From assembly GCA_965178125.1 (NCBI GenBank), contig OZ237737.1:1302001-1366000 (forward strand): a stretch of 64,000 nt of DNA, read 5' to 3'. Positions within the stretch are counted from its first letter, which is position 1; each line of letters opens with the position of its first letter. The notes under the pieces are model-generated. The model made no database searches. It had not been told where the DNA came from and saw only the letters and a program-made list of their open reading frames with translations. The translations under genes were made by a program, and so were the position numbers. Below, piece after piece: positions 9,301-61,352 of the stretch. Source of the stretch: Bilabrum cf. latius. Taxonomy: Eukaryota.

Positions 9301-9757
9301 ACCGTACGAGAGCCTTGCCTCGAGCGAACTGCCTATCGCAGCCATCGATCGCAGTTGATGGTGCTGCGTCGCATCAGCGGCTATGGATGCTGCCGGCACA
9401 TGCGCCCGCAGCACGCAACCACGATCATGCAAACGAATTGAATCATCTGCGAGCGACACGATGCCCCTGCGGTACAAAAAAAATGTGCAACAGCGCCAGC
9501 ATGCGGTAATGTGGCATGCAACAGAGCAAGTGAACTTAGGACCACAAGTCTACTTACTCATCCACAGCAACAATTGAGGAAATGGCGCTGAACGCCCCCT
9601 AGCACGCAGCAGAGGTGCGCAGGGATGGGAGCTCAAAAGCTGCAAGAGCGCCGATTGAATTGGCTGCCCACAGTCGCTCAAACTTAGAGTCAAACTCCAC
9701 AGCGGTAGGATTTCTCAGTAATTCTGTTGCTCCGGAATCGAGCCATGGTAAGTCCAT
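3370..9757 (-). CDS. PAN2: PAN2 poly(A) nuclease catalytic subunit (WD40, UCH-like and DEDDh exonuclease domains)
   Basis: Exon 1 9558-9757 (VEFDSKFERLWAANSIG), intron 9467-9557, then one frame through ORFs 7282-9477, 6373-7236, 4075-6297 and 3640-4056. TAGs at 9599, 7282, 6373, 4075, 3640 and 3613; ends TAA at 3370-3372. Motifs ALDAEFV, IVDYLTRFSG, IVGHGLENDF, HDSVEDARAAL. Confidence 0.9.
9467..9557 (-). other. Spliceosomal intron of PAN2
   Basis: GTAAG...TTTTTTTTGTACCGCAG; removal joins VAVD-E-GIVSL in frame. Confidence 0.75.
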
Positions 9758-9877: not shown

Positions 9878-9996
9878 GTCTTCGTTCATATGTGATTGGA
9901 CCCGCCTGAGCCCTGCCGACCTCAGAAGCTAAGCAATCACCAGTCGGGCCAGTACTAGCGTGGGTGACCAGCTGGGAAGCCCCGATGATGAAGGCC
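9878..9996 (+). rRNA. 5S rRNA gene, single dispersed copy
   Basis: About 119 nt. Terminal helix GTCTTCGTT/GATGAAGGC; helix GTGATTG/CAATCAC; box A-like GAAGCTAAGC; AGTACTAGCGTGGGTGACCAGCTGGGAA matches the eukaryotic loop E/box C region; followed by an oligo-T run. Confidence 0.9.
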
Positions 9997-15259: not shown

Positions 15260-15575
15260 CAACTTAAAATTGCTCGAGTTTCCACTTATAGCCAGCCTAT
15301 TATAGGAATTATGTTGGACCAAGGCAGACTCAGGAGATTTGACTGCAAGCTTTTCAATTCCCCCTATCGTCTCAGATCTTTTTCGTCCCCGTGATCTATG
15401 CTTCTGCAGACGAGGCAAATTTAGGTGACCCGTTCGATAGGAGAAATGAATCTAGACTAGTCTATGCTCTTCGGGCAAGGTTGCGCGACCGTGGGGTCCA
15501 CCCTTCCATGTGTGACGAGTGACAGCACGAAAGAACAGCGAACTGCAACTCGGTCAGATTGCGAGCCCAGTTGAG

Positions 15576-24500: not shown

Positions 24501-27223
24501 GGCGGTGGCTCCAAGCCCGGTGGACTCGTACGGCGCGGTGCCACCCGCCGCGGAACCGGGGGCCTCGAGTACCGTCGAGGCCAGCGCAGAGGTGGTGGGC
24601 CTGTGGATGGGAGGCAAGCCACCGATGGAAGGCAGCAGCATGGAGTGGGCGGGGTACCCTCCGCCGGGGGCAGGCAACGTGCTGGGACGGGAGTTGTCGC
24701 CTTCTCTAGTCTGGTCCTGCTCCAGCGAAGGACCGCGCAGCGTGTGTCCGCCCAACAACATACCAGCAGTAGCAACAGACCCGCCGTCTGTCTCCTTGGA
24801 CTCGCCCAAACCCTGCGCCGGATCGCCGTCGTCACCAAAAAGCTCGGTGCTTTCGTTGCCGATCTGAAGCCTAGACGCGCCGCCGGCACCAGCACCGGCG
24901 GCGGGACCGAGCTAGTTGTCAAGCCGAAGGGTGGTGCTTGCCGCCGGCTCCAGGTGGAACGAGCGCCCGAGCCTGCCACCTGCCGCGCTGCCCCACGTCC
25001 ACATCCGCCCGTCAGCACCGGCGATCGCGCTGTGATGCGCCCCCGCCGATACGTGCACCGCCCGCAGAGGCACCCGCTCCAAAGCATCACCGGCTCCACC
25101 ACGCGACATCGCTCCATCGTTGTCTCGGTCCAGCAGCTCCATGTCGCCGCACCCAGGCCCAGCGTCGGCGAAGAAGGCGAGACACGCCGCTGGCTGCCTC
25201 TCCAGCGCCAGCTCCGCGTCTTTGACCGCCCTCTGATCATCCAGCGACAACCCTCCTGCTGCGCCGTCTCTGGCCCTCCGAGCAGCCGCAGTTGCGATGG
25301 CCGCCACGATGGAGGGGCCCTACGACTCGAACCGCAGCCCCCGCCTCCAGAGCGTCGCCATCTTGCCGCGTACGGGCGCGCCCTCCCCAGCACCGCCCCC
25401 CTCGCCAGACCCGGGCACTCGCGCAGCACCCACGGCGGACCGACCTTCGCCTACTTCGTCGAGCAGGCTAGCGCTTACTGCCAGCCTGGCCGGGACGTGC
25501 CTTGCCCGCGTGTCCCCGGTGCCCAGCTGCCCCTTCGCGTTCAACCCGCAGGCAAACACGGCACCCGATGCTGACCGTGCCATCGTGTGCGCCCACCCGC
25601 ACGCCACCTGCACGAAGCTAGAGTCCTCTGGACACCTATCCGCAACGAGCCGGGGCCGGTCCACCCCCGAGCAGTGCCTGCCCAGACCGAGCTGGCCGCA
25701 CGCGTTCTCCCCCCACGCGAGCCATTCCCCAGTCTGCAGCACGCAAGCGGTGTGCCTGCCGCCACACGACACCGATTTCACCCCGAGGCCGTGCAGCGCC
25801 GACACGTACGTGGGCGCCGGGACGAGCGCCCTGGCCCTGGCCCCGAGAGGGACCCTCGGCCTGGCCTTGGAGAACGGCATGTCCCTCGTCTCACCCTCCA
25901 CACCGGATGCGCCGCCGCCCTCACCGCCACCAGCCTGGACGCCCCCCTCTTTCTGCAGCTGATCCAGGGTCCATCCTTCCCTCTCCTTCTCCCACTTGCT
26001 TCGAAGGTTTTCGTTCCCCTCGCCCTCGCCGCCCCCCTCGGGCTGTTGCTCGTCTCCGTCCTCCATCTCCATCGAGACGCGCTGCCTGCCGTCCTCTGCA
26101 GCCGCTTCGGTTCTCGCAGCGGCCCCGCCCGGGGATTTGCTCTCCGCCTTCGAACCAAAGTTGCTACCACCGCTTCCAAGCGGTGCTCCTTGCCGGATGG
26201 CGTCCGGGTCGCGCCCTTGCAGATCTGGCCTCGCAGCTGCTTCGGCCAAGAACGCTGGCTTCGCGTCCGACAAGGCCTGCGGGTGCGCATACCTGTCTCT
26301 GGCGCCGCCTCCTGCGGCGAGCCTGGGCTTGTGGACCCCCAGCCCCTGCCGCTTGGGACCCAGACCCAGCTGGCCCTCTGTGCCTCTGCCCCACGTGTAC
26401 AGCCCACCGGCCGCCGACACCGCCGCCGAGTGCTCCGTGCCACACGACGCCTCCACCACCTCTGCCCCTGCGAGCCGCTGCACTGCGCGAGGCACCCTCA
26501 CGAACGGCAGCGAAGAGTGCAATCCGCACTGGCCCCGGTCGTTGCGACCCCATGCCAGCACAGCCCCATCGTGGGTCACTATAAGCGCGTGACCGCCACC
26601 CAAAGCTACCTGCGAACCGAAAAAAATCGAACTATCGACGAGCATCCAGATGAGGCGCTTGGGAAGTAAGACCCGCCACAAGAGGACACAAGGCAATTTT
26701 CCAACCAAAGGCCTACGAGTCATCATTGTCTCACCTAATTTGGTCTCGCGGCAGCGCATGCAGCCTCGAGAGCAGTCCGGGCCATCTCCATACCTTCCTC
26801 GGGATCAGACGGATCAGCGAGATCCGTTGCAAAGCCTGGTAGCTCCTGCTCAGCATCCATAGCTGCCAGCGCCAGCTGCCCGGTCTTTCCTGGCCGAACA
26901 GTCTCTACAAGTGCGTCGGCGCTTGCACTTGCATGCTGTTGCGGTTGCCTGCCATACTTCACGGCGTTGGTTATGGCAGCCCTTACAGCAGGCACAGAGA
27001 CTGAATCCGGCATTTGAGCCCACACTAGACCCTTTGAAGGCAGCACCGCTGCCGCACCACCATGGGGATCGCTTCCGGCTGCTGCTAGGGCAGCCACAGA
27101 TGCACCGGCAGCTTCCTCGTGGACCGATGTGCATCCATCCTTCTCTGCCCCAACAGACAAAAACGTTCCATATGGCGCACCTCTGGCAGCGAGAGCTGCT
27201 TCAAGCTCGCCTGAATTCGACAT
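18558..27223 (-). CDS. Very large RCC1-repeat protein with IPT/TIG-like segments (~2,850 aa)
   Basis: Exon 1 26735-27223, intron 26610-26734, then ORFs 25320-, 24912-, 20799-, 19704- and 18558- all in one frame joined by TAG; ends TGA. RCC1 repeats such as VALGGGHALIVTHDGAVLAWGRNDRGQCG and VQVACGWAHTMA; IPT-like GVAPGVFRTSGGARLALFGPGL and VEVSFDGGATF. Confidence 0.8.
26610..26734 (-). other. Spliceosomal intron of the RCC1 gene
   Basis: TAG|GTGAG ... TTTTTTTTCGGTTCGCAG|GTA, phase 0. Confidence 0.75.
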
Positions 27224-28684: not shown

Positions 28685-28851
28685 CCTTGCAGATATATAT
28701 ATGCACAGTGCCGTGACTAAGATGCGCGCAAATCCCTATGCGTGCGCGCAAACTGAAATGTCCCAACATTGATGCATTGATCTCCTAGCTAGCAATTAAG
28801 CACCCGCGAGCGCCACCTGGAAACAATCCATTTGCCCCACCCAACACGAAG

Positions 28852-31800
28852 ATGAAGATCACAGTGCGACCAAACGCCTCCAACGGAAAGCATAGTACAA
28901 AATTAATCGCTTGCGACTTGCATGGCGTACTTGTCAGCATGAATGCAGCTGCAGTTGGAATTGGTGCACCCGGAGAGGTGCACTTGTCTGGAAAAGCATC
29001 CCAGCGGGCCAAGCGAGGAGAGTTTGAGCCACCAGCGGGCGATGACCTAGCTCAGGTAATTGGCGAGGTCAGCCTGGTTCTCTCGAAGCCAGACGACGGC
29101 ATATGCACGCTTGTTCTGCACGCAGGAATGAAAATTCGGACGGCAACCAGCAGGTCGCTCGCAGTTTTCCTTCTGCGCGGCGCAGGCGCGTGGGACCAGA
29201 TCTATCTGGAAGCCGGCGCTGGCGGCTTCCTGGACCTAGGATTGAGGCAGAGGCTGGAGCGGGAACCGCCAGCGACTCGATTTGCTCGTTGGCGTAAAAA
29301 AGGGCAGGCTGCGGCTTCAATGGGAGGGATCGGCAGGCGAGAGCCCCGCAACCAGGCCGAAGAGAAGAAATGGATGGCGTTGTCAGGGTGGGGCGGCGTC
29401 GAGCAGCTGCTTGACTCGCCCCACGACTTTTAGGACGTGCGCGCGGTAGCGATTGGAGTTCCAGTGGCTGACACCGGCGCCGATGCACGGCCACTCGTCC
29501 TGCTTGGGATCGCCTGGCTGGCTCCGGTGAATTCGCTGCTGCCTAGCATCAGCGCGGCACGAGCGGCCCGCGCTGTGCACAGTGCCGAGGGTGCCGACGT
29601 GAGCGCAGTCATGGCGGAGGCAGACGCAGCCGCAAAAGAGCGCGAGTAGGAACTGGACGATTTCGCGGGGGAGGAAAGCTCCGGGGTGCGTGCCACGAGG
29701 ATCAGGGGGGCCACAGCGGACGCGGTGATGGACCAGGGCAAGGACCTGCTTGACAGGGGCATAGACCCTTTCTTCGTGCCCCCGGCTGCCGTGCTTCCGA
29801 AGGCCCTGCGAAACGGGCTGGAGCTTGCCGGGCGCTTGCACAGCCTGCGCCGCACGCCGCTGAACGTCCCCGTTATCAGCAAGCCGGTCACGAGCGGCGG
29901 CCTCTTCGGCAGCTCTGGCTCTGGCGGTGCGGACGACGGGGATGATTCTGCCGGAGGGGGTGCCAGAGGGGCACGGGCCTAGGACGAGTCGGCGGGCAGG
30001 GACACTGACGCCAAGACGCTCCAGCAGGCGCTCAGCACGAGGTCGGTGAATCACAGAGTCGAGCAGCAGCGGCGGATGTGGCAGTCCTCCAGGCGTCTGG
30101 GCCTGGGCGCCCTGGGCCCCTCATCTCGCGGCATGCGGGCCTAGTCTCCGCGCCGGGGGCAGGGCAGGGGCGCCGTTAACCGGGGCGCCGCGCTTGCCAG
30201 AGCCAATGCAAGCTTGGACGCATCCGTGGCCACCGGTGGGCCCATGACGAGCATGGACCGTCCTGGCAGTGCCGGCTTGACGCTTGAAGACGGAGTGGCT
30301 GGCAGCGGCAGGGGCAGTCCGACTGTGGCGCCCTCTGGCGGCGTCTTGGCGCAGGGGGGCTCTCGAAGGGGGCTGAGCGTAAGGTGGGGTGACGCAGGCA
30401 AAAGCATGGACCAGCTGGACGACGAGGGCAGACCTTTGTCTCGGGGAAGCGCCGCAGGTGCCGGGAGGCCGGGCTCTGCGGGCTCTGCCACTGGTGATAC
30501 CGGGCTAAGTATGGTGGTGGCCCCTGCTCCACGCGGAGGTATGCTGTCCCGCGGACCGGGAGGAAGTGGACGCGGCATGAATTTCGAGAAGAGCCGGAGG
30601 CAGCTCGTGCTGGAGGACGAGGAGGACGCAATCGCGAAGGTAGATGGAGTTCCCTTGCCGCAGCTGCACCTGGCAGGGCAGCTATTGGCGAGAGATGAGG
30701 ACGAGAGGTCGGCCCAGGCCAAGGCAGTCATCCATAGGATCGTGGGAAGGTCGTGGCGCGGCCAGCAGAAGCATGATCAGAGGGATGCGAGTGTTTCAAA
30801 GGGTGAGATCGGATCGAATGGGAAAAACACCGGAATTATGAGCAGCAGCGAGTCCGAAGACGAAGAGGGGGCAGGTGGTGATAGCGCAGATCAGACGCGA
30901 GCTACTGGAGCATCTTCATCCAAGAAGAAAGCGAGGAAGAAGGCCGCACTGGGACTCACGACTGGGCCTCGGCTGCGCCCGCAGCAGCTGCATGGGGCGC
31001 TGACGATCCTCGGCCTCTCTCTGCTGCCTGGGCAGTCCCAAGCGTTCCTCATGTCGTTCGCGCGGCACGTTCCACCTCCCATTCGTGGCTTGATGAAGCG
31101 GCTTTACCACAGGATCCGTCGGGAGCGCGAGAGGAAACGCAGGGAGGACGAGATTGGTGGGCTCACCCCGTTTGGTGGCGGGATCTCTGGTGGTGGGGAC
31201 GCAGATGGCCTGTCCACTGCACGAACGGAAGGCACCGTGGATTCCACCGTGCTAAGCACCACCAAGATAACGCCAAAAGAGGCGCGAGAAGCGGCAGACA
31301 AGTTAGACGACAAAGCCATGGATCCGTTCGCCTGCGTGACGGCTCATCATCTCAGCCTGTTGCTCGCAGTGGTGCGCCGTGCTGCCGTCCTCAGCCCGAC
31401 TTGGCTGGTGCGTCCCACGGCGATGGACGGGTTTCGCATGGCATCAACCGACGGAGTGCGTCTCGATCTTCCCGAGTTTGTACTTGCAATATCGCTCGTG
31501 GGAATCTACACATTCGCTTCGGATGCGGACGCGTACGCAGGGTATCCTGAAGCCGAAGCAGGAGCCAAGCTGACTCGCAACCAGCTGCTGGACTACTACA
31601 TCAAAAAAAGGCATGCCACGGGAGCAGATGTGGAAGAAGACGCCAAGGCTGGGAATCTTGCGGGCGCGGGGGCATCTGAAGAAGTAGCTGGTGATCTTGC
31701 TCTGCTGCAGCAGCGAGCTGACGGCCGGCTGCCCATGGCTGACCTGGACAAGCTCGGCCGGCCCGATACGCGAGGCCTGGTGCGGCACGATGGGTCCATC

Positions 31801-34800
31801 GAGCTCGGATCAGAACTCCAAAAACGCCATTCGAAGGAGGCGCGGACCGCAAAGAACGTGCGGTTTGTGGTTTCTACCGGCTAGAAGTCTTCGTCCGGCG
31901 TGTCGTCTGAGGAAGAGGGCTTCAGGGTCCCGGGTGGCTCCTCCTCGAGCAGCTCCAGCTGGGGTGGTGCCAACACAAATGAGGAGCAAGATGATTTTCA
32001 GAGCATGGAAGTCTAGTTGTCTACGTCTGAGCTGGAGTGTATCCGCCTCAAGAGCAAGTCATTCGGCGGATCGATTGTGCTCCTAGTGGGCCCTGCCGCG
32101 TACAATAGGCTGCGACCCCCCAAGAACAAGGAGGACGATGATGACCGGATCGCAAAGTCCACGGTTAAGACTGCCGGTCAGCTTGGGGGATACAGGCTCT
32201 GGGAGCGCGCCCGCAGCGCGTTCATGAAGTATTCGAGTGACGGCGTGTTCGTTGGCATGGCTGGGTTCTGTGAGGCTCTTGGGGCGCTGACCCTGCGAGC
32301 GTTTGAAGAGGCCGAGCGAAGAGATGACGAGCGGCGGGCGTGGTACGCCAACGAAGCAAGGAAGTTGCGTGCAAGGAAACGGGAGCGCATGGAGGCGCTC
32401 CATCAGGCCAGGATGCAGGTGCTGAAACGGTTGGAGGAAAGAAACGCTGCCATTGCCACAGACGAGTCGGACGGCAGACTGGTTTCCGGCGTATCCATGG
32501 GAACAAGCGGGAGGCTGATCACCCACCATATCTCTGATGCTTCCATGTCTGGGATCGTGAGACCCGACTCGAGAGAATCCACGGGAATGGTCCGTGGTGC
32601 CCGAGCAAGGGAGGATGAGAGGCCAGTTGACGCACCTGGGTCTGATGGCATCGCTCGAGGCAGGCGCTCCTCCCGCGGCCCTGCCGCCCTGGTGGGTGCG
32701 CGCAGACCTACCAGCCCCGAGATCCTTGCGCCTGTCAAGGTAGGAGGTGGTGTGCGAGACCGTAGCGCGTCTCCTGGCGCCACCTCGGATGCGGAACAGG
32801 GACGGCCCTCAGGGATCCTGCGAAAGCCACCAAGGCCAACGTCCCCGCTGCGCCTCGAGCCGCAACCGAGAGGTTCTGTTCCGGGCATTACCCGAGGTAC
32901 TGACTCCAGGGCGAGATTAGATTCGGGTGCTTCGGATTCTGAGACCCGACAGACTTCTGGAAGGTCGATAGACAGCGCTCAGAGGCAACGCATTAGCTCG
33001 GCTGAGTCAGACAGGTCGGGAGACGGCTCGGCCTCGGGTGGAAGCGGTCAGGCAAAAGAGGGCGCTGAGACGCCCACGCGTCCCGGTTCGCATAGAAGCA
33101 CAGGCAGCGGAAGGCCTCCAAGCGGTGCGACCAAGCCTCGCAGAGGCAGCAGCGGCAGCCCCTCTAATAAGCGAAGAGGCTCTCAGTCCCGGCGCGGTGG
33201 CGGCGCCCGTGCTGCGCAGCGGCGCGAGAAGCTGCGTGCGCGACGAGCAGGGGGCACGAAGAAGTCACGTTCCGGATCTGTTGGCAAATTCAGCGGCGGT
33301 CAGAGCAATAACAAGAGCGCAAACAGGCTGGGTACGCCCGATCCGACCTCAGGGAGCCGAGGAAGCAGGCCAACCACCGGAGCTATGGCCAGGGGTTCGC
33401 GGGCCAGGTCCAGCAGCAGGAGCGTAGTGCGCCACGAAGGGTCTTAGTCTGTTGCACCCACTTCGTCCATGCGCATCGCCAAGCCAGCCGGATCAAAGGC
33501 AGGGAAGCGAGCGCGTATGCGGCGACGCTCCATGCTGCAGAAGCAGCAAACGGAAGAGGAGCGCATGAACGAGTCTGAGGTGCTGCAGCGGCTCGTGTGG
33601 CAGCCGAAGGGAGACCCGTACTTTGTAACTGTCGCGGCTTTTGCAGAATATGTCCGTCTTGAGGACCAGAAAAGGCTTGCGGAGCTGAGCAAGATCGCCG
33701 ATGATGTCACCCCGCCGCCAGCCAAGGTGAGCGACAGCCGTCAGAAGAGGAGACAGCTGCGGCGAACGCAGGAGAAAAAGGCGCGTGTGGACAATGCGAT
33801 CGAGGACCAGGAGCGGCAGAAAGAGTCCAAAGAGGAAGAAGAAAAAAGGAAAAAAGCGTACGAAGAGGAAGCCAAGCTGCGCAAGAAGCTGCAGGAGGCC
33901 GTTGCCGGCAGGGAGCGGGCAGAGCGTGCTGTTGAGAGGGCGCAGATGGCATCGCTGGAGCAGGACTACGAGGCAGACATGAGCCGAAGGGGGGCCGACA
34001 CGCTGGACATGTCCCGACGGTTCATTCGGGAGTCGCCCACGAGAGCTGACCTTCTTCGGGCGTGCGACCTGGAGGCCAGGCGGAAGGGTCTCGCGTCCAT
34101 GCTGGTGGACGAGCTGGCGAGCATATCGCTGGCGGACAACTCGGTGTCTTTGCTACAAGCACCATTTTTCTACTCGCTCCTGTCCCTGCAGTCTCTGGAC
34201 CTTTCCCACAACCGGCTGAAGACCTTGCCCTCCGAGATCGGCGGGCTAGGCCTACTCAGGATCCTCAAGCTGCAAGGGAATCGGCTGGAGAGCCTTCCTC
34301 CGGACATTGGCAAGCTGGGCAAGCTCGAGCTAGTGGATGCCAGCTTCAATAGGCTGGCCCGGCTACCTTCGGAGATCCTGCTGGCGTCCAGGCTTAAGGT
34401 GCTGCTGGCCAAGGGCAACAAGCTGATATCCCTACCAGAGCCGCCCAGGGAGGACCCTGACGTCAAGGCCGACCGGTTGGCAAAAATGGCAGCGTCTCAG
34501 GCGGCGTCTGTGGTGAGTGGCACGCTTCGGGCCGCCAACGCCAAGACGGAGCGGGGAAGGCAGCTGGCTGAAAAGGCAGAGGCGGAGGAGGAGGCAAGGC
34601 GTCTACGAGAGATGGAGGCAGACGACCTGAGCGACTCGGAGGACAGCGACGACGACGACAACCCGGAGTACCGCGGGCTCGATGACGTGACCATCCAGAA
34701 ACTCAAGATGCAAAAGAAGAGAAAGCGGATGGCCGACAAGCGCAAGAAGCTGCTGACCGGCTCTGGCGGGGAGCAGACTTCGCTAGCCATCGCAAAGCGA

Positions 34801-37800
34801 ACGGTTGGAGCGGCGGGTCCTGACGGAGGCAAAGAGAGAGGGTCCCAGGGAACTGGCGGGCTCAACCGTCCGCCCCAGTTGATGCCGATGTGGCCATCAA
34901 TGATGCATCTGGACCTCCGATCAAATCAGATTGAGCAGTTACCGATGGATCCGTACTGGATGCGCATGCCGTCGTGCTCGGCACTGCTGCTCGACGACAA
35001 CCCGCTCTCGGTATTAAGCATAGCTCTTGGGCCCGGTGCAAGGTCCCTGTCGCACGCTGAGCACGCACGCAAGTAGGAACTAAAGGACAAGGCGGGCGTT
35101 GCTGCCGTTGCGCGGGACGAGGCCTACCAAGCGCAGATGGCAGCGGGGATCGGCGAGGGCATGCCCAGGCAAGCCAGCACGGATGGAGGTCCGAAGCCGC
35201 CGCCTCCCTACTTTGTACCGAGGCTCATCCTCAGCGCAAATGGGCTGCGTGGTGAGGGTCTGCGATCCTTGGGCAGCAACGTCATCCATCCCGGTCCCGC
35301 CGGGGAGCAGTCCGTCCTCACCGACATAACGAAAGGCGAGGGCTTCCCCGACTACGAACTGATCCTGCAGACGCAGAAAGAGGAGGAGGAAATCGCGCTG
35401 GCCAAGGCGCGGGCCATTGCCGCCGCAAGAGGCGATCCATCGGACTCTGCGGCACTGCAGAGGCTTCTGCACGCCCGCGCCAACAAGAAGAGGAGGCGGT
35501 CATCGATCGTAGAGCGCGCTGCTGCCGCTGCCAATGCCACAGCCATGGCGGTTGTGGGAGGCACGGCAACCAGCTCCATGCTCGCGCCGTCCAGGGGCAG
35601 CAGGGGTGGCGGTCTCACCAGAGCTGCCATCCAGACCCTGCTTGCTGCTAGCCGCCAGAGGCTTCGATTCATACAGTACGACCCCGTACTGATGACTCCA
35701 GAGTCGCTGCGGCCCATGGAGCGAGTGGCTGTGACCTACACGGTGCTCATGCGGAGAGCTGGCATCCTCTCTCTCCCCGAAGATCTCAGCGCATGGTCTC
35801 GCTCGCTGCGGTTCCTTGACCTTGCAGGCAACAAGATTAAGGAGCTGCCCGAGGCCATGGCCGACCTCAAGCGCATCGAGGCCATCAGCCTTGCCGACAA
35901 CTCGCTCGGAGGCGAGCTGGCGCCAGCCCTGTTCCAGTGCACCACTCTCAGGCATCTTGACATTTCCAGGAACTCTCACCTGCAGAAGCTTCCCGACAGC
36001 GTGGGCTCCTGCCAGTAGCTGCAGACTCTGCTCGCGCGGCAGTGCGCGTCTCTCGAGGAGATGCCCCCTACCTTCCGCATGTTGCACTCCCTTCGGCGAC
36101 TGGACCTGGCAGGGTGCGCGAGAATGAAGCGGGTCAAGTTTCGGCTCAGGAGACTGACGTCACTGACGGCGCTGCGGCTGCCCGGGGCCGTGTCGATCCG
36201 TTCCATCCCTGGGGTAGCCCCTGGCAAGAGCAAGCTCAAGAAGCTGGACACTTCCAAGCTGGCCGGACTGGCCACAGGTTCTCCGGAAATGGTCAGTGGG
36301 CCTGTCGTTCTGTCGCCCGCATCGGTTGGCAGGGGCGTGTCGCCCTCAGCCACCGACCAGAAGCGGTTCGGTGGCTTTGCGCCCACCACAGCTAAGGGCA
36401 GCGGGGACCACGACAAAGACTCGAGAGGGTCCCCTGAGCCCGGGAATGCTAGCGTTGCCACGCCGTCTCCGTCTCGCGTGCTCATGTCGAAGGGTGCCAC
36501 GGACACTGCAAAGCTCCGGGCCACACCGCCCCCGAACGTCGTGTTTCTTGACGTGAGCGGTTGCAACCTAGGAGACGCTGAGCTCTCGGCCGCAATTCTG
36601 CTTGCCATGCCGCAGCTGCGGGCGCTTTCTGCAGCTGACAACGACCTGACCAAGATTCCAGATGCAGTCTTCTCACACTCCAAGCTATCATACGTAGATC
36701 TGCGCCGCAATCGGATCCAGGAGCTGGATTCGCAGTAGGAGGAGCTGGTCCAGCACTTGCTGCCAACGGAGTGGTGGGGGCAGTGGGACAGCGGGGGCGG
36801 CCCTGCCCCGGTCGCCACACCAGGTGTAGGAGGTGAAGGGACGCACGGCCTGCCCGCCGCGACCAGGCAGCCCAACGTAATGGGATACACTCGTACGGCT
36901 CCGGGAAGCACCAAGGTGGCTCGGGGCCCGAAGCAAGCCGGCAGGCATGGCGGGTCAGATGGCTTGTTGATGCTCGAAGACGAGCAGCCGCCGCCGCCGC
37001 CGCAGACGACTGCCAAGGACCGCACCCGGATCCTTATGCCTACTCCCAAGCACCGCCTGCGGCTAGCGGGCAATCCCCTGACCCGCGTGCCTGGTCTCAG
37101 CCCTGGGGGCTTCATCGCAGACCCGGAGCTGACCGAGGACGTGACCGGTGTGAGCCAGCAGAAGGGCGACGAGGCCGCCCAGGGCGGGGATCATCAAGGC
37201 AAGGAGGGCGGCATGAGCCGCCGCACCGGTTCCTCCCAAGCAGGCCGCAAGCACAGAGACAAAATTTCGATGGCCCGCAGGGCGGCACTGAAGGTGATGA
37301 GGCTGCAGCTGGGGCGGGGAGCTCCAGGTGGGCTCCGGCGGTTCCGCACCACCCGATGGAATGGGACTGCAGCTCTCGGTTTGCTTCGGGGTTTGGTGCG
37401 CACCGGAGCGGGCGAGCCTGGGCTTCCATTCGGGGGCGCGGAACGAGAGGATGTGAGTCGGTTGGACATGAACATGATGGCTGGGGGCAGCTTCGGGGCT
37501 GCGAGCGGAGCAGGTTCAGAGGCTGGTAGCTCGGTGGTGGGCGCAGGGGGATAGGACGGTACCGCGGCCGCAGACCTGGACGGGGCCGAGAATCGCTGGG
37601 ACTGGCGCTGGGCGCTCCTCCGCGGCGGCCTCGCGCCCTCGTCGAACGCAGGAGCAGCCCCCAGCGAATGGCTTCTCAAGGCGCACGAGGGGCTTTGGAC
37701 CGAGGCGGTGGCAGGGACGGGGGTCGGCCACGAGGCAAAGAACTCGGCCGGCGGGCTGTGGATGTGCATTCCTGAGGCTGCGCTGCTTGAGGAGGCCGAG

Positions 37801-39882
37801 AGACGGTGGGCGGCAGAGATCGGGACTTCTGGCCTGTTGGTCCAGACCGCCATCCAAGGCGAAGGGGGCGGTGAGAGTTCAGACGGAGGGGACAATGGCG
37901 CCGTGAATTCGGCTGGCATTCGACAAGAGCGTCGCTTAGGAGAGATGCACGACGCGCTGCTGGCGATGGCTACCGCGGATGGATGGGACGGGGGTCACTT
38001 CAGCATGGGTGGGCTGGGTGCCGGGGCCGCAACAGGTCCCTTCTCCCCTGGCAAAGGGGGGCCAAGGGGGGCGCTGCATCGTGCAACCGACGCGCTCATC
38101 GCCGAAGGCGCGGTGGCGGGACCTGGTGACCCTGTGTCGAAGGACGAGGAGTCGCACGAGTCTGCGATCCTGCATGCCGTGGCTCTCCGTCGCATGATCA
38201 CAAGGATCTCGGAGCGCGTGTGGAGAGCCACACGGGGCGCCGCGGACCCAGCCGCATTCGTGGCTGCCGCCAGGCAGGATGTCCTCATGGACAACCGAAG
38301 AGAGTGGAAGCAGCGCGCAGAGTCGAGCGATCGAGTGGTGCAGGGCATCCTCGCCGAAATGAGGAACAGGGAACAAGCGGAACGGGAGGTTGAAGAGCAC
38401 GATGGCCGGAGCGACAGAGCGGAGGGTCAGAGAGACGCCCCCTTGTCGCCAACTGCCGCTAGCATTCCGACCGCGGGCGAGGCCATGGCGCTGGATCCCT
38501 GCAATCCCGACTACGCAACGTTGACGCGAGACGGACGTGCTGTGGTTGCAGAGACAGGTAGCACCGCACAAGTGCTTCTTGTGCTGTCGTCTTCACATCC
38601 CGTGGAGGCCCCGCTGTATCCACTGCCGTGGCACGAGCATCTGATGGTGCGAATGCTCACCAGAATCCATACGGCCCTGCGAAAGGCGCACGGTGTCAGC
38701 GCGCCCAGCGGCATGGCGGTTCGTCGGCGAGAAAGGCGCGAGCTGGAGAGCCTCGGAGTCGACTGGAGGAAGTACGAAGAGCGATTCTGGTTCTGGCCGT
38801 ACGGTTCCGATGGTATCGGGCGAGACTGGCACGGCGATGTGCGAGGTGTGCGAGGCCTTAAGGAGGACCCGGTGCCGTTGAGTTAGCAGTCCGTAGATGC
38901 GGGGGGACTCGCGTACAGCGGCACGGCGCAGAAGCGCAGGGAGGCTGCGATGTCTGCCCACGGCGCGAATAGTAGGCAGGAGGCCAAGGCAGCCGAGTCC
39001 AGGAAGGAGTACATCCCCAAGATCGTGCGCATCATGCGTTACCTGAATCACACCACGTCAAACGCGCCAGAGAGGGCGCGAGCGGACAGGCTGCTGTGGC
39101 CTCCCGACCCACCGAAATCCGTCGAGTACGCTCTGTTCAAGTCAGCAGAAGAGCAGCGGCGCGCAGAGCAGCTGTACGGATGGAAGCCACCAGGAAACAT
39201 GAAGCTGTCAAGAGACACTCGGGACGGGCGAGTCATCATCGACGCAACTGAGAGCCGGTACATCCGAGTCAGGCAATACGACAGCGGGGCCTACGAGCGG
39301 ATGGAAGCAGGCCGCACGCAGCCGCCAGATAGCATGATTCCTGCGATTGATACAAGGGATTCCGCGCTGCGCGCAGCTGGCCGCAGAATCATGATGCAGC
39401 AGCAGCAGGCACCGGGAGGCGCTGCGAGCGGCAGTAGCAGCGCAGATGCCAGTGGAGGTCGGGGCGCTCGCTAGGAAGAAGGCGATACGGAGCAAGATGG
39501 CGCCTCTGGCATCGAATTTGGTATCTCTGCTATCGCTGCCTCGTACCCTAACAATGTGGCGCGGCTAGGTTCGGAGCGACTCCCCGGTGCGGCGGATTCA
39601 AGCGAGCTGGAGGGGTACCGTCCGTCTGGCGTGGCGACCCGCCGGGTGAAGGGCAAGCAGCTCAAGGCAGCACCGTCGGTTCCAGGGATGCAGGTAGGCG
39701 GTGCTGCATCGGAGTACACTGCAGACGGCGTGAGCAAGCAAAGGATGCGCGATTTAGCGCGAGTGAGTGCCGGGGTCGAGCCTGGCTTTGTGCCGCTGTA
39801 CGAGCGACCCGAGTTCAACCCTTTGCTGGGTCGGGTAGAGAGTTCTGGGGGGCGACAAGGTCGGTCCAGAGATGTCGGTTGA
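28852..39882 (+). CDS. Giant leucine-rich-repeat protein (~3,676 aa), apparently intronless
   Basis: A chain of same-frame ORFs joined by 13 TAGs (29431, 29647, 29980, 30142, 31882, 32014, 33445, 35074, 36016, 36736, 37552, 38884, 39472); ends TGA. LRRs such as LQSLDLSHNRLKTLPSEIGGL, LRFLDLAGNKIKELP and LSYVDLRRNRI. Confidence 0.8.
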
Positions 39883-53190: not shown

Positions 53191-56100
53191 TCAGCCGACC
53201 GACCCCTTGGTCTCCAAGAGGTCCAGGACGCGATCCAGCTTTGACTCGAGGCGATCCATCCTCTCCTCCAGCTTGCTCCTGCCTCGCCTCGCGCGCTCTG
53301 CCCCGCGCTCCGCCTCCACACGAGCCGCGTGCGCCGCACGGGCAAACATCGCGGCCTGCTCCGCGCGCACCACACGCACCAGCTGCTGCATCTCGTACGA
53401 CTGCTTGCCCAGCTGCGCGCTCAGCATCAGCACATCCTTCAGCTCCACGCTGCGCCCGATCTCCAGCAGCAGCCCAGTCACAAACTCGTACGGCAGGTCC
53501 CTGTCGGTGCGGTAGTTGCGGGCAGCCATCATGGACTGCAGCACTTTGACGGAGAGGGCCTGCATGTCGTTCGCGTGCAAGGGGTGCTGCAGGAGAACCC
53601 TGGGCATGTAGTCCATGCGGAGGGCCTTGATGCGGCGGCGACGCTCCTCACGGATCATCTCTTCATTCTACTGCTCCCGCCCGATCATTGACAGCGACAC
53701 TCCAATGCTGTCAGTGTCGGCAGATTGCTTGCTGTCCGAGCTATCCTTACCTGCCAAGTTGGGCTCATGCCCGGACCCAGCAGCTGGCGCACTCCTCGTC
53801 GACTGATGAACTGCGATGGCCTCTACGGCAGTGGGCTGACCATCCGATCCTGTAGGTCTGAACATGGCACGCATTGCTGGATCGATGTTGGGCTGCGGGT
53901 TTATTGGTATAGGCCGGAATCCTTCCAATGGTGCGCTGACACTGCTGGTTGGTGGCCCATGGTCGGGTCGCACACTATCTGCTGCAGGAGGCTTGGCTTG
54001 ATTGGCTGCTGAGGCAGAGGTTGAACTTGCATCCGATGCCGCTAGCCTGCTAGCTGACGCTTCGAGCTTCTGTGGCGATGCGAGCCCGTCGCTGCGTACT
54101 GCTGGCAGTGCTTCATCAACTTCTCCAGAATCGGAGTTCACGAGCCGAATGGCCCGCTCCACGTCCTGCACCTGCGCCGCGAAGCCCTCGTACCGAGCCA
54201 GCACCTGCTCCTCCTCCATGTCGTCCACCACATTGAACAGCTTGCGGTCCATCTGGGATAGCACGGATCCCAGCACTCTCCTGTCTGAGTTCTCGATGAG
54301 ATAGGATATGTCAAGCAGCACGTCCTCGCTGACGTGCAGAAGGCGGAAGAGTTCCGCCATGTTGGACTGCTTTGCATCCGCATTCTATGGCGTCTCCTTC
54401 AATTCTTCCTTCTTTTCCGGAGCAGGCTTTGGTTTCAAACTTGGCGCAGCAAGCTTGCCCAACAAGCTCTGCCGGGGGGCCGCGCTGCGAGTCCTGTCGT
54501 GCTATTTAGCAGGAACTAGCCCACCGAGTGTTGGCTGCTGGCCATAACTACTACTTGATTGCTGTACCGCAACAGAACCTTTCTGCGTTGGCTCTAACGG
54601 TCTGGAATCTGCGTCGGCCGACGCCGCAGCCGGTGCATGGACGCGCTGCACGCGGCCATCGCTCATCAAATCGCTGTCACAAACGATGTCCTCTAGTCCA
54701 ATACCATCATCTGATGGAGCACCCAATTTCATGAGTGGGTCCAACAGTGTGCAGTGGCCGCTGTCCAGCTTCTCCCGGGCCTGCAAGTTGTTCTCCGCGG
54801 CCTTGGCAAACGCTGCTGCGTCAGCTGAATGCCCGTCATCGTCCTCGTCGTACTGTTTGACGACGTATGCATGGACTGCTCGACGTAGCTCTTCGCTCGA
54901 GATCCCGTTCGAGTCATCGTCATCGATGTCTTTGAAAGTCTAGATGATCTGGGTGCGGCGCTTCCGACGGCTCTCCAGTCCTTCCAGCTCGCGGCGTTGC
55001 CTGTTGGCTCGCGAAGTTTCCATCAGCTTGTCCGAAAAAAGCCTGCGAATACAAAGAAGCAGTGTATTTCACTATCACTCTCAAGCTTGGTAGCTCTATC
55101 GCGCGGTGAGGAGGACAAACTGTCACGGCCTGTGCCAACGATTGCAGTTGCGGCGGACTCACCCGATCACAAGGTTCAAGATACCGAAGGCTGCGAAAAA
55201 GTCAGGGAACGTGTGGATGGACTGGAAGTTTATTTCATCCCACATGGTGCACTTGTTCTGCGATAGGACAGACCCTCCGACCCGCTGCACAACGAAGCCG
55301 TCCTCACCGGTAAGAAGAACGTATGACACGAAGAGCGACACCGTCCACCCCTGCACCTCCCAGATCGGACGCGCCAAAGCCATAGACCAAGACTCCAGCG
55401 ACATGATCTAGAACAGCGAGTACATCGACCGAGGCACCGTGCCGTAGAAGGCCCGCACATCCTCCTCCTCCGGCCGCCCGATCCACACCTCTGCCTTTCC
55501 AACCGCCTCGGTGAAGATGAGGGCATACACGTAGATGAGCACGAGCAGGAGCATGGACGCCCAGAACAGACCGGAGAGGGAGGCAATCTGCGAAATAGTT
55601 GCATGAATGGGTTGGACCAGTTATAATGAGGCAGTCGTCGGCGAAGGCCTGCCTCGGGCTGGGCGCACCTCGAGGCACAGCATGCTCCGGCGGAGCGCAG
55701 GACAAGGCAGTTTGGCGCTGCCGAGCTCACGAATCCCATCAGCAGGTTGTTCAGCTCGTGAAAGAACTGCGAGGTACGAGAAAGGCATTCAATTTCAGGT
55801 GGAAACCGGGCAGTTGCGTGAGCAGGCCTGGGCTGCTTCACCGCGAAGCTATGCAGTACACTGTGGCATGATGTTGCTGCGGCTCCTCGGTCACACTTAC
55901 CTGTAGTGTCCGCCCCACGCGACCCACGCGCAGCAGCCGATTTGCCAAGAACACGCGCGGGATCGCCCCACCTGCTGATTCAAGGGTCGTACTCACGATC
56001 AGCCCGACCGCTGATACGAAGGCAATGAAGAAGTCGAAGACGTCCCACCCGGAGCTGAAGTACACTGACGGCGTCAGGGCCACGATCTTCACAATGGCCT

Positions 56101-56652
56101 CCAGCACGAAGAACCAAGTGAAAAGGTGCTCCAGGGCGCTGAAAGTTGTCTGCAGGTCGGGCCTGTCTCCGTAATCCACGCTGAACCCGATTGTGATGCA
56201 GCTGGAGATTATGCAAATGATGACTAGTCTGCGATGCTCTAATCACTGTAGTCACAAAACCAAGGCATACACTCGAAGCGCGAAACAAAACATTTAATTA
56301 AGTTTTCCATCTTACACGTTAAATCCGCGGCTGTGAACCAGGTTTTCCCAAATACTCTTTCTCTTGGAATTGTACAGCGGGTCGTGAGACTCCATCAGCC
56401 TGCGATCAGAACGAGCGTGCATGCAAGCGAGAGAAAGCATAATGTTACAGTCAGCAGCACACTGTTTCATGCCGATCAAACCAAAAGTTACTCACCAGTC
56501 GATGCAAGTGAAATCCAGTCTCTGACTTTCGCTCCACAAGCCAGTACCCTATAGATTGGAACCATCCCCAGCCGCATGCCGGACCGGCGCTTGTTTTGGT
56601 ATTGAAACCGAATGGTGGCTCTGATGCTGGCTTTGTCGGCTTCCAGTGACAT
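53191..56652 (-). CDS. Single-domain voltage-gated Na+/Ca2+ channel, BacNav/EukCat-like, copy A (multi-exon)
   Basis: YFSSGWDVFDF (S3), PRVFLANRLLRVGRVGR (S4), YGTVPRSMYSLF*IMSLESWSMALARP (pore), FGILNLVIG (S6), EF loop DDDDSNGISSEE, coiled-coil end, TGA. Start codon and some exon borders are uncertain. Confidence 0.8.
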
Positions 56653-56811
56653 GTGCGTGGGCCCGTGAAATGTTGTGCATCACACACCTTTGCGATCAAC
56701 TTGAAGCGTTTGCAACGGGGTGCTCAACGAGGTGTTCCACGCAAAGGGTCTTTATACTTATAGGACACAAAAGTGTAACACCAGAACCCCTGACAGGCCA
56801 AAAAGATGGAT

Positions 56812-59800
56812 TCAGGTGGACTCGCTTGAGTCGCCCGAAGAAGCATGCGGAACCTCAGGCTCGCCGGATTCCGGTTTGTCTGACGCGGCTCCGCTCTACA
56901 AGAGTGCAAGGAGCTAGTCCAACTTGCCCTCCATGGAACCCAAGCGGTTTTCCATCCGATCCATCCTCTCCTCCAGCTTGCTCCTGCCTCGCCTCGTGCG
57001 CTCTGCCCCGCGCTCTGCCTCTACACGAGCCGCGTGCGCCGCACGGGCAAACATCGCGGCCTGCTCCGCGCGCACCACACGCACCAGCTGCTGCATCTCG
57101 TACGACTGCTTGCCCAGCTGCGCACTCAGCATCAGCACATCCTTCAGCTCCACGCTGCGCCCGATCTCCATCAGCAGCCCAGTCACAAACTCGTACGGCA
57201 GGTCCCTGTCGGTGCGGTAGTTGCGGGCAGCCATCATGGACTGGAGCACTTTGACGGAGAGGGCCTGCATGTCGTTGGCGTGCAAGGGGTGCTGCAGGAG
57301 AACCCTGGGCATGTAGTCCATGCGGAGGGCCTTGATGCGGCGGCGACGTTCCTTGGTATCCACCTGCTGCTTGTCCTCCTCCTCTTTGCCGCCCTCTTCT
57401 TCTGCACCCTTGGTCTACTTGTCTTCGTCGCCTCCAGCTGCCTTCACGATCGGATCCAGTGCGTTGCTACTGCTGGCAACCGGGCCGCTGGACCCGGTGC
57501 TGTTGTTCCGAATGAGACCAGGCTGATTGAGTCTGTGTGCAGCGACGGATGCGCGCCTACCGTGCCCGATGTGATGGATATTCGTATTGCGATCGGCTTG
57601 AGCGGCCTCTACCAGCAGGCTTGACGCCTGAGTATCATCGCCTGTTCGACGCAGTTGGTGCTGCAGGGCTTCGGGAATAGCCGCTGCAGGAATGACCGGA
57701 ATGGGAGCTGCTGCCAGCATTCTGCCCTCGCGCCGGCTCGCCCCGCGCGATCCACTTCGGCCATCGGTTGCACCACCAGGTGTACTCGGAAACGAGAAGA
57801 CATTGCCAGTGCCCGCTTCAGCAGAAGAGCTAGAGCCATGACCTTCCTGGTTCCGTGGCTAAGAGCCTTTTGGCGTGAATGGGACGCGGGACTGCGTCTC
57901 TGCGGCCCGACCGGCTCGTGCGGGGGGGCGCGGGAGACCACGTCCAGGCGAGCCACGCACAGTGCTACCGTCAGTGCGAGCAGGTGGTTGGGGCGCATCC
58001 ACGCTGCCGGAACCTGGTGCATAATTCACGAGCCGAATGGCCCGCTCCACGTCCTGCACCTGCGCCGCGAAGCCCTCGTACCGAGCCAGCACCTGCTCCT
58101 CCTCCATGTCGTCCACCACATTGAACAGCTTGCGGTCCATCTGGGACAGCACAGATCCCAGCACCCTCCTGTCTGAGTTCTCGATGAGATAGGATATGTC
58201 AAGCAGCACGTCCTCGCTGACGTGCAGAAGGCGGAAGAGCTCGCCCATGTTGTCATAGCGTCGCTCCAATTCTTCTTCGCTCACTTCGTCTCCCACGATC
58301 GATGATCGGTGTCTGCGAAGGCTCTTCCTCACCGCTGATTTATCTTCCTCCGTGGAACTATGGCCAGCTGCAGAAGCCCCACTGGATGATCTTGGTTTGA
58401 CCATCCCGCGTAAGCGACCCTTGCCCTTCTGCTAGGAAGGAAACTCTCCGCGGCCCTCAGCACCCCCGAGCTGCTATTCCTAAATGCTGGATGTCCCAGC
58501 AGTAGGCACCACAGCGAGCTCAACCTCTGGCTGCACACTTGTAGCTGCAGACACAGATGCAAGAGCGCTAGATTGTACCTCTTGCTAGCCAGTCGACAGC
58601 GCAAGATGTGCCTGACTGCGACTGCTCGCGGGAACTGCCCCGCCATCGTCAGGTATCGCGGGTGGAGCCACATAGCGTGTGCCCGCCGCCGCAGGCTCCT
58701 CACCGATGGGCGATAGCTGGCCTGCATCCAGTGGCTCCTCCTATTTGGAATTCTGCTGTCTTCGCGACTGAAAATGTCGAGTGGGGGGGGGCTGCGTGAC
58801 TACCTGCTGGTGCCTGCGGTGGTCCTTGAAGCTGCTGTCCGAGTCAGAGGAGTCTGAGTCGATGTTCCCCTCAATCATGTCCTCTAGTCCAACCCCATCG
58901 TCTTCAGGCATGCCCACTTTCATCAGCGGGTCGACAATCTCGCAGTGCTCCTTGTCAAGCTTTTCCCTGCTAAACATGTTCGATTCAGCTGCCTTCGCGA
59001 ACGCCGCAGCATCTGCCGCGTGCTCGTTCTCGTCCCCGTCGTACTGTTGCTAGACGTAAATATGAACAGCACGCCGGAGTTCGTCACTTGATATCCCATT
59101 GGACCCGTCCGTGTCCATCCCTTGAAAGCTCTGAATGATCTGCGTCCTGTGACGCTTGCGTGATTCAATGCTCTCCTGTTCGCGTTTTTGCCTGGTGGAC
59201 CTGGACGACTCCATCAGCTTGTCGGAGAACAGACTGCGTACGTGATCAGGTCAGCGGATAGGTAGGACAGATACGTGAAAGGGCGCCTGAGCAGAGCCCC
59301 ATGAACGGCATGTGCCACAGCTTGCCTCACCCGATGACCAGATTCAGGATACCAAAGGCTGCGAGCCACGTCGTGAGGTTGAAAGTGATGATGCAGAGAC
59401 AGATAGAACCGGAAGCAAACACAATAACTCGGTTGGGGGTGACTGCTTATTGAACTTACCACTGAGAAGAACGTACGACACGAACAGCGACACCGTCCAC
59501 CCCTGCACCTCCCAGATCGGACGCGCCAAAGCCATCGACCAAGACTCCAGCGACATGATCTGGAACAGCGAGTACATCGACCGAGGCACCGTGCCGTAGA
59601 AGGCCCGCACATCCTCCTCCTCCGGCCGCCCGATCCACACCTCTGCCTTTCCAACCGCCTCGGTGAAGATGAGGGCATACACGTAGATGAGCACGAGCAG
59701 CAGGACGAAGGCCCAGAACAGACCGGAGAGGGAGGCGAGCTGCGGGAGCAAGCATCAAGCAAGAACGACAGCAACAAGAAAATGATCTAAAAGACACTTC

Positions 59801-60914
59801 AAGGATTCTGTGTGTGACAAGCAATGCCAAGGGCTCCGCTAGTTCCGCGATGTAGACCGCCAACTCACCAGCCCGAGAAGCAGGTTGTTGAGCTCGCTGA
59901 AAAACTGCGAACGAGCTTGAGAAAAGCGATGGAATGCAGGGGTACAGTGCAATCTAGGGTCACATCGAGAAGGTACCGCCCACCAGATCGCGCGCGGTGC
60001 AGCTTACACCGCGCGATGTCTAGTCAACAAGTTGGGCTCGCCAGCCACACGGTGCAAACACGCGAAGAGCCGTGACCTCACCTGGAACGTCCTGGCAACC
60101 CTGCCGATCCTTAGGAGTCGGAACACTCGAAGCACTCGAGGTATGGCCCCCTCATCTGCGCCCGACGCCATGTTGATCACGATTCCAATCGCTGAGATGG
60201 ACGCGACCACGAAGTCGAACACGTCCCACCCGGAGCTGAAGTAAACCGACGGCGACAGAGCTGCGATCTTCATGATCGCCTCCAGCACGAAGATCCAAGT
60301 GAAGAAGTGCTCCAGTACATCGAATGCGACCTACGTTTCGGGGTAGTCACCGTAATCAATGTTGATGCCGATCATCGCACAGCTAGCAAGAATCAAGATC
60401 ACCAGGCACCTGCGATATAAAGGCGACCATACAGACCTCGCACGCCATAACAGAAGGGAAATTACACAGCTTCCATGATAAACAGCTTGCGGAGACACTA
60501 TTTAGGGTCCATGCGCTGGCCAAACCACCGCAGGCAACCAGAGATGAATAGAAACGCCATCCTACTTACACGTTAAATATTCTGCTATGGATAAGCTTGA
60601 ACCAAAATCCTGCTGTATCATCATCAGCAGTCGGGTCGTGGGATTCCATCAACCTGCAAATGCCGTAGATTGGCCTCAGCAGCGCCAGGAGCAGTAGACT
60701 GGAAACGAGTAAACTGGCCCGCACAATAACGAAATTTGACCTCACCAATCCAAAACAGTGAACTCCGTTTGTTCAATTGCGCTCCAGATGCCCCCAGATT
60801 GGACAAACGACGAGGTTTTTCGCACTGTACCGCTGGTGGCTTTGAATGGGCCTGATCCTCTTGATTTTTTCTTTTGGTTACTCGAGGAGCTACCTTTATT
60901 GGCATAGTGCGCAT
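56812..60914 (-). CDS. Single-domain voltage-gated Na+/Ca2+ channel, copy B (multi-exon tandem paralogue)
   Basis: PRVLRVFRLLRIGRVAR (S4), SLFQIMSLESWSM (pore), EF loop DTDGSNGISSDE. Frame continues through TAGs (60331, 59050, 58741, 57859, 57415, 56914, 56896) to TGA at 56812. Start uncertain. Confidence 0.8.
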
Positions 60915-61352
60915 GCGACGCGGCAACAGCGTGCATTGCGGGCAAGAATGAGAACCGGGTGTACGAGTCCTGTGGTGCAGCTGGAAGCTGCGGCTGCGTG
61001 TCACGTGGCTTATGCTCCAAAAGCGTCTTCGGTGTTCGCTTACAGCGAAACACACAGCAGTCACGGATTCGGCTGCTGCTTGGGCAACAACCTGGACACG
61101 TGAAGCTTCTAGGACAGAACTGCTAAGTTAGCCCTGGAGCCGTTGTGGAACTGCTCGCAACAATCCACCCATCGAATCCGATATAAATCCAAGAAAGCTC
61201 GTCTGCTAACAAAGAGACTCTCGGCAAGACTGGACATGTAGTCTTAAGTTAGGTTTGTCTCTAATGGTAGACCGAGCAAGGCGCTGGTTTGCGACCAGGT
61301 TTGCGTGAGGTGGCTATGATCTCCCCTTGCTGTACGTGTTGCAGTTTACCTA

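Follow-up and report, generated by a model that had tools for sequence, protein, structure and literature searches.

A 64,000-nucleotide stretch of Bilabrum cf. latius DNA (GenBank assembly GCA_965178125.1, contig OZ237737.1, positions 1,302,001 to 1,366,000 of the forward strand; hereafter, the window) contains two tandem genes for predicted voltage-gated cation channels, here referred to as A and B. Both genes are interrupted by in-frame TAG triplets, several of which stand opposite a glutamine codon in the other copy. Taking together the channel genes, the remaining genes of the window and their homologues, we consider it highly probable that this is nuclear DNA of a GC-rich eukaryote (the GC content of the window is ~58-70%), in which UAG is an ordinary glutamine sense codon, and translation is terminated by UGA and, rarely, by UAA. 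A code in which UAG alone is reassigned to glutamine is of a kind that is already known, but rare; the window probably adds a case.

Two tandem channel genes with in-frame TAG codons

Gene A (53191-56680, minus strand) was modeled with seven exons (56680-56496, 56399-56316, 56228-55901, 55766-55731, 55587-55308, 55190-55163 and 55042-53191), which amount to 930 codons, including six in-frame TAGs, and end with a TGA at 53191-53193. Gene B (56812-60936, minus strand) likewise consists of seven exons (60936-60746, 60653-60570, 60409-60082, 59904-59869, 59739-59460, 59358-59331 and 59233-56812), with 1122 codons, 11 in-frame TAGs and a terminal TGA at 56812-56814. The exons of the two genes are at homologous positions, each model begins with an ATG and has a single terminal TGA, and the six introns per gene, 12 in total, are all of the GT..AG type, measuring 87-143 bases in A and 92-177 bases in B. 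No internal TGA, internal TAA or frameshift was found in the 2,052 codons of the two models. The glutamine-type codons are 6 TAG, 33 CAG and 6 CAA in A, and 11 TAG, 37 CAG and 11 CAA in B. Between the stop of B and the initial ATG of A there are 131 bases; that is, the two copies are indeed in tandem, as proposed in a preliminary description of this DNA.

The same description had listed three sites at which TAG and CAG are exchanged between the copies, and all three are confirmed on the minus strand. In the pore helix, codon 271 of A is TAG (55408-55410; PRSMYSLF*IMSLESWS), while B has CAG (59560-59562; PRSMYSLFQIMSLESWS), in an identical 17-residue context. At codon 348 of A, before an EF-hand-like loop, TAG (54940-54942; RTQII*TF) is found opposite CAG in B (59131-59133; RTQIIQSF). 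Reciprocally, codon 118 of B, in the S1-S2 loop, is TAG (60331-60333; YGDYPET*), and its counterpart in A is CAG (56150-56152; YGDRPDLQ); this column is variable in the relatives P0002 and P0003. Beyond this list, codon 44 of A, in exon 1, is a TAG (56549-56551) opposite CAA in B. If UAG is read as glutamine in functional genes, these TAG/CAG swaps are synonymous changes, from C to T or from T to C.

Of the remaining TAG codons, codon 377 of B (59050-59052) faces GTC (Val) in A, and CAG in an environmental relative, L001, which is described below. The three other TAGs of A, in its long last exon (54502-54504, 54385-54387 and 53668-53670), have CAG, GAA and GAC as partners, in weakly aligned stretches. 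The nine other TAGs of B are also in the last exon (58741-3, 58585-7, 58480-2, 58474-6, 58432-4, 57859-61, 57415-7, 56914-6 and 56896-8). The final two of these are located 33 and 27 codons ahead of the TGA, and the similarity to A runs past both (KLDxLLALLx versus KLDRVLDLLE).

Splicing, expression and selection

Seven sequencing runs contain the stretch, and four of them were compared, namely X3, which is the DNA run of the first study, and three runs of two further studies, X5 and X6 (from one) and X7 (from the other). Intron joints that match the sizes in the models are present for 12 of the 12 introns in X5 (six in A and six in B), for 8 of 12 in X6 (five of six in A, three of six in B) and for all six B introns in X7. 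The DNA run X3 contains none of the 12 joints. One spliced contig from X7 (record 24, 3412 letters) extends from 61100 to 56939 and covers 9 of the 11 B TAGs, with 0 other letters over its whole length; similarly, record 18 of X6 covers the pore TAG at 55408-55410 with 0 other letters. Together, the contig pieces listed cover 6/6 TAGs of A and 11/11 of B, and differing letters were reported only at 53539 and 53572, neither of which is a TAG site. When 376 codons are compared between A and B, the ratio of nonsynonymous to synonymous divergence (dN/dS) is 0.196; the pore has a value of 0.087, and two C-terminal blocks have values of 0.05-0.2.

These data bear on two alternatives, namely that A and B are decaying pseudogenes in which the TAGs arose by nonsense mutation, or that the TAGs are edited to CAG in the mRNA. 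Because CAG is converted to TAG in a single step, the observation of TAG opposite CAG would, taken alone, also fit a fresh nonsense mutation. However, the two reading frames are free of frameshifts, TGA and TAA throughout, and their dN/dS values are low; splicing of every intron is seen in contigs from three runs, and the TAGs in these contigs are unchanged; and the same TAG pattern is seen in 11 other genes of the window and in L001. Given the splicing joints, the unchanged TAGs and the low dN/dS, we conclude that A and B are neither pseudogenes nor edited at TAG, and either explanation is in our view scarcely conceivable. The prospect raised in the preliminary description, i.e., that both copies might be unexpressed pseudogenes, is thus not what the genes themselves indicate.

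The relationship between the copies is less simple than it first appeared. The description of the pore region as a nearly identical block is correct for exon 5 (96% nucleotide identity), but it does not extend to the whole genes, which form a mosaic. Three pairs of blocks are 96-98% identical in DNA, namely 53252-53648 and 56957-57353, 54137-54364 and 58025-58252, and 55313-55592 and 59465-59744. The synonymous divergence (dS) between A and B is 0.09-0.3 in the three near-identical blocks, and exceeds 2 in the exon that encodes the voltage sensor. This pattern does not fit a simple recent duplication, as the notion of recent paralogues would have it; it suggests instead old duplicates that have been homogenized in patches by gene conversion.

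Several other features of the locus were observed in the same contigs. Some of those from X5 and X6 track the conserved blocks and then diverge, at 58113 and 59599, with loose ends of 167-255 letters, and the database fragments P0010, P0103 and P0297 mix features of A and B; the genome probably harbors additional paralogues or strain variants at other loci. One contig from X5 (record 11; 56495-57348) runs from the 3' end of B through the 131-base spacer into exons 1-3 of A, which are spliced in it; this suggests that A and B are co-transcribed or have overlapping untranslated regions. Lastly, intron 5 of A (55191-55307, minus strand) has an open reading frame in phase with its neighbors, and its retention would lengthen the protein by 39 residues; it is spliced out in the contigs from X5 and X6.

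TAG, TAA and TGA across the window

The effect of TAG is not confined to the channel genes. With TAG as a sense codon, the longest frames in the window have 3721, 2748 and 2114 codons, versus 1370, 957 and 945 without, and the frames that are lengthened by reading through TAG carry Pfam domains. Reading TAA as sense, by contrast, leaves the longest frames almost unchanged. In 13 genes with a total of 18,180 codons, frame 0 contains 72 TAG, 555 CAG and 124 CAA, such that TAG represents 9.6% of the glutamine-type codons; the off frames of the same genes contain 272-288 TGA, 109-116 TAG and 41-46 TAA. A single frame may hold up to 14 TAGs, and therefore occasional readthrough by a near-cognate tRNA would be unable to produce a full-length protein. 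The TAGs are also distributed as glutamine codons are: 12 of the 72 (0.167) are adjacent to a glutamine codon, compared with 0.131 for glutamine codons themselves and 0.070 for other codons (Fisher p = 0.004).

Twelve of the 13 genes end at TGA. The exception is a PAN2-like gene, which ends at TAA (3370-3372, minus strand); the frame beyond this TAA is the antisense of the FH2 gene. Because the frames were delimited by TGA and TAA, a gene ending at TAG would not be recognizable, and UAG might accordingly be ambiguous, i.e., glutamine within genes and a context-dependent stop for some of them. Context-dependent stops are known in other lineages (PMC12005148); an ambiguous UAG is reported for some ciliates, Blastocrithidia and Amoebophrya sp. 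ex Karlodinium. Against such a dual role, each of the 13 genes extends to a TGA (12 genes) or a TAA (one gene), multiple TAGs are passed within single frames, and in gene B the two TAGs closest to the TGA are followed by sequence in which the similarity to A persists. We thus regard an ambiguous UAG as unlikely.

A different question is whether UAA is also a glutamine codon, as in the UAR-to-glutamine code (NCBI table 6), and is merely too rare to be noticed in a GC-rich genome. Of the three triplets, TAA is the least frequent in the window, with 140 and 144 occurrences on the two strands, and UAA and UAG usually change together, according to PMC11687900. Nevertheless, the proportion of CAA to CAG (124:555) implies that ~16 in-frame TAAs ought to be found beside the 72 TAGs, and no credible one was identified in the 64-kb window: all TAAs in TGA-delimited frames of at least 300 codons were inspected, and none had convincing coding sequence on both sides. 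The PAN2-like gene, moreover, ends at TAA, and real genes are not lengthened when TAA is read as sense. A glutamine UAA is therefore very unlikely, and UAG appears to have been reassigned on its own.

Codons opposite TAG in the paralogue and in an environmental relative

In the codon alignment of the spliced coding sequences of A and B, 14 of the 17 TAGs have an aligned partner codon, and the other three are in gaps. The partner is a glutamine codon in 6 of the 14 cases (five CAG and one CAA), to be compared with a glutamine-codon share of 4.2% in the two genes (binomial p = 1.3e-5). At the four TAG sites where at least four of eight neighbors are identical, the partner is Q twice, V once and R once. 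This alignment, which the preliminary description had put forward as a check, hence places glutamine partners far above chance, although the result is less clean than the three sites out of 17 on which that description was based. Its conclusion that TAG is a synonym of CAG is supported; its further statement that the amino acid can be identified without external data is not, since with 6/14 glutamine partners the paralogues by themselves are insufficient.

A metagenome scan with a single protein query produced 62 loci; just one of them, L001, is close. In exon 5, this locus (2597 bases) has an identity of 99% at the protein level and 84% at the nucleotide level, and it shares the structure of exons 5, 6 and 7, as well as the intron positions, with A and B. 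Its partial coding sequence of 743 codons includes 8 TAGs and 0 TGA or TAA, and four of the eight TAGs are opposite glutamine codons in A and B. When L001, A and B are aligned together from exon 5 on, a TAG occurs in 23 columns, ten of which also contain a glutamine codon in one or both of the other sequences. At two of them, namely the pore site and the site before the EF-hand-like loop, the TAG of A faces CAG in both B and L001. Conversely, at two columns, VKQY/xQQY and the conserved DMEEE-Q-VLARY, it is L001 that has the TAG, while A and B each have CAG; at a third column, a TAG of L001 is opposite CAG in A and CAA in B (the glutamine-supporting columns of L001 are 165, 337 and 515). Judging from these alignments, the code seems to be common to at least one divergent environmental relative.

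External anchors for glutamine

The paralogue swap alone does not fix the amino acid, and it is the alignments to outside homologues that settle its identity. When exon 5 of A was translated with X in place of TAG, 77 distinct PDB sequences were matched, and the four best place the X at the Q of lfQvmtleswsm. A HMMER search with the relative P0002 returned 16,063 matches, from the best 150 of which 45 pore stretches were aligned with phmmer. In these 45 stretches, the residue in the column of the pore TAG is Q in 27 cases, V in 5, R in 5, I in 2, and G, S, K, L and T in 1 each, with 1 gap. When only single-domain relatives are considered (up to 700 residues), it is Q in 9 out of 10 and S in the other. 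The assertion that this glutamine is conserved in BacNav-type pores, made in the preliminary description, is therefore consistent with the BacNav chains in the PDB, the single-domain relatives and the majority of the 45 stretches.

The second anchor is codon 1880 of the PAN2-like gene (frame 3370-9714, minus strand), a TAG (4075-4077) in the exonuclease domain. This TAG is opposite Q in four of the four PDB PAN2 alignments shown, and in 24 aligned homologues the column contains Q in 22, E in one and D in one. The TAGs in other genes are not informative in this respect: those in the kinesin motors fall outside the aligned conserved segments, and provide no information on the residue, while those in the kinase, RCC1, FH2 and LRR genes are either outside the best-matched domain stretches or at positions that, by reading of their contexts, are variable.

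A number of observations weigh against the assignment of UAG to glutamine, or weaken the grounds for it. To begin with, 8 of the 14 aligned partners in A and B are not glutamine codons (GTC, AAA, GAA, TCA, GAC, GAC, CGC and GAG). In two strongly conserved contexts the partner is CGC (Arg), namely within KAL-R-MDYMP, where L001 has TAG and the two window genes have CGC, and within KLD-R, near the C-terminus, where B has TAG and A has CGC. The E and the D in the PAN2 column belong to the two homologues that are closest to the window in local context, and the deeply conserved TAG sites with outside homologues are just two, i.e., those in the pore and in PAN2. The count of zero in-frame TGA or TAA over the 13 genes is in part a product of how the frames were defined; it is the lengths of the frames and the domains that span them that serve as evidence. 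Similarly, the RNA nature of runs X5 to X7 is only guessed, and X5 is marked 'probably DNA'; splicing is shown by the joined forms, which have GT..AG ends. Finally, the decoding machinery was not seen in the 64-kb window, in which ARAGORN found no transfer RNA (tRNA) genes and Rfam matched only a 5S ribosomal RNA gene; the release factor eRF1 is not encoded there either.

Some of these points would be explained if UAG encoded another amino acid, e.g., Glu or Arg. GAA or GAG is opposite TAG in two paralogue columns, CGC is so in the two conserved columns just mentioned, the acidic residues in the PAN2 column come from homologues of the most similar context, and UAG-to-Glu codes exist (PMC10553269). 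Yet neither E nor R is found in the pore column of the ten single-domain relatives, and E is absent from that column in all 45 stretches. In PAN2, the 22 homologues with Q stand against two without. Among the partner codons, those for glutamine are by far the commonest, and TAGs cluster beside glutamine codons as glutamine codons do. An amino acid other than glutamine is thus highly improbable.

Proposed decoding of UAG and relation to known codes

By analogy with what is known of reassigned codes, UAG would be decoded by a tRNA-Gln with anticodon CUA, and the release factor eRF1 would be blind to UAG, while still recognizing UAA and UGA.

According to PMC11687900, UAA and UAG almost always share one meaning. 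Codes in which UAG alone denotes glutamine are listed there for the fornicate Iotanema spirale, the ciliate Protocruzia tuzeti and two phyllopharyngean ciliate lineages, and UAR-to-glutamine codes for many ciliates, ulvophycean green algae, Hexamita, Streblomastix and Amoeboaphelidium. The window has in common with the first group (NCBI table 15 type) that UAG is glutamine and UAA is still a stop, i.e., that the UAR codons are uncoupled; it differs from those lineages in its high GC content (about 60%), its long genes and its introns of 87-177 bases. High GC and long genes with introns are also unlike the macronuclear DNA of ciliates. In comparison with the second group (table 6), the reassignment of a stop to glutamine is alike, presumably via a suppressor tRNA-Gln, but in the window TAA gives no indication of being a sense codon, and it ends one gene. 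A code of the type of Amoebophrya sp. ex Karlodinium was set aside, since that genome is AT-rich and all three stops are read (PMC12005148). No description of a GC-rich non-ciliate with a UAG-only glutamine code was found in the literature searches made, which does not show that this code is unpublished.

It is possible, and we propose this only tentatively, that the lineage is outside both ciliates and Fornicata, possibly among myzozoan alveolates or poorly sampled protists, and that it uncoupled UAG from UAA independently, with L001 sharing the resulting code. If so, this would be a further origin of the UAG-only glutamine code, and one that occurred under GC pressure, rather than under the AT pressure that is usually invoked. 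Few nuclear codes give UAG and UAA different meanings, according to PMC11687900. Each new case of such a split narrows the range of models for the separation of the two codons by eRF1 and suppressor tRNAs, and a GC-rich case would provide a useful contrast. In practical terms, gene finders that assume the standard code would truncate or split most of the long genes of this organism. Among database entries, the proteins of its relatives resemble fragments that each derive from one exon.

Predicted structure and relatives of the channels

From their sequences, the products of A and B are predicted to be single-domain, six-helix voltage-gated cation channels of the BacNav/EukCat type. The Pfam domain Ion_trans (PF00520) is matched above its cut-off of 25 both in exon 3 (60.4 and 68.0 bits in the two genes) and in exon 5 (32.6 and 34.5 bits), and each gene model holds one such domain, consisting of an S1-S4 sensor and an S5-P-S6 pore. 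In the translations of the models, S4 has an Arg at every third position. The selectivity filter is SLESWSM; in the alignment to PDB chain 4lto_A and its related chains, the segment SLFQIMSLESWSM is paired with lfqvmtleswsm, and the filter matches the tLESWSM of the best BacNav chains in the PDB. After S6 there is a cytoplasmic tail of 600-800 residues, in which a match to EF-hand_5 is weak (16-17 bits, below the Pfam cut-off of 25.9).

A long cytoplasmic tail after S6 is common to A, B and EhEUKCATB1, which has a C-terminal pair of EF-hands and a coiled coil as characterized in 10.1101/2020.04.29.068528. The filter of EhEUKCATB1, TGESWSE (10.1101/2020.04.29.068528), is however unlike SLESWSM, and so is that of OsEUKCATA1, TLDAWAD (PMC6509283). 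EukCatA, B and C are reported to occur in algae with red-derived plastids (PMC6509283; 10.1101/2020.04.29.068528). A word-based search with exon 5 returned two relatives only. The nearest named relatives are Vitrella brassicaformis CEM04539.1, from a chromerid, and a dinoflagellate transcript, which are 37-40% identical to the relative P0002; the similarity of the tail of A to the Vitrella and dinoflagellate channels is not significant (E = 2.9 and 7.0). Channels that combine a filter identical to that of bacterial sodium channels with a very long tail merit electrophysiological study, for which expression constructs need TAG to be recoded to CAG.

Other genes in the window

The long frames of the window contain eukaryotic domains, as identified with Pfam, namely LRR, RCC1, a PAN2-type exonuclease, two kinesins, FH2, a kinase with EF-hands, a C2H2 array and an acyl-CoA synthetase. 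Short introns of the GT..AG type are present as well. Two of the frames are open only if TAG is read through: one with LRR domains, at 28717-39882 on the plus strand (3721 codons, 14 TAG), and one with RCC1 repeats, at 18558-26804 on the minus strand (2748 codons, 4 TAG). Both are rich in low-complexity stretches of Ala, Gly and Ser. The C2H2 array (13529-15553, minus strand) consists of ~15 near-identical zinc fingers with the linker HLGERKHEC, and the two TAGs of this gene are both upstream of the array.

The best protein matches of the genes in the window reach just 37-42% identity, except for a short local match of PAN2, whose local identity to database homologues is 33-55%. For the acyl-CoA synthetase, the top identity is 42%, over 55% of the query, and 39% at nearly full coverage; its nearest named relatives are from Heterosigma akashiwo, oomycetes, plants and chytrids. 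A full-length 5S ribosomal RNA gene (Rfam RF00001, 81.4 bits) is found at 9878-9996 on the plus strand, flanked by the PAN2-like gene and a kinesin-like gene, and it may help to place the organism.

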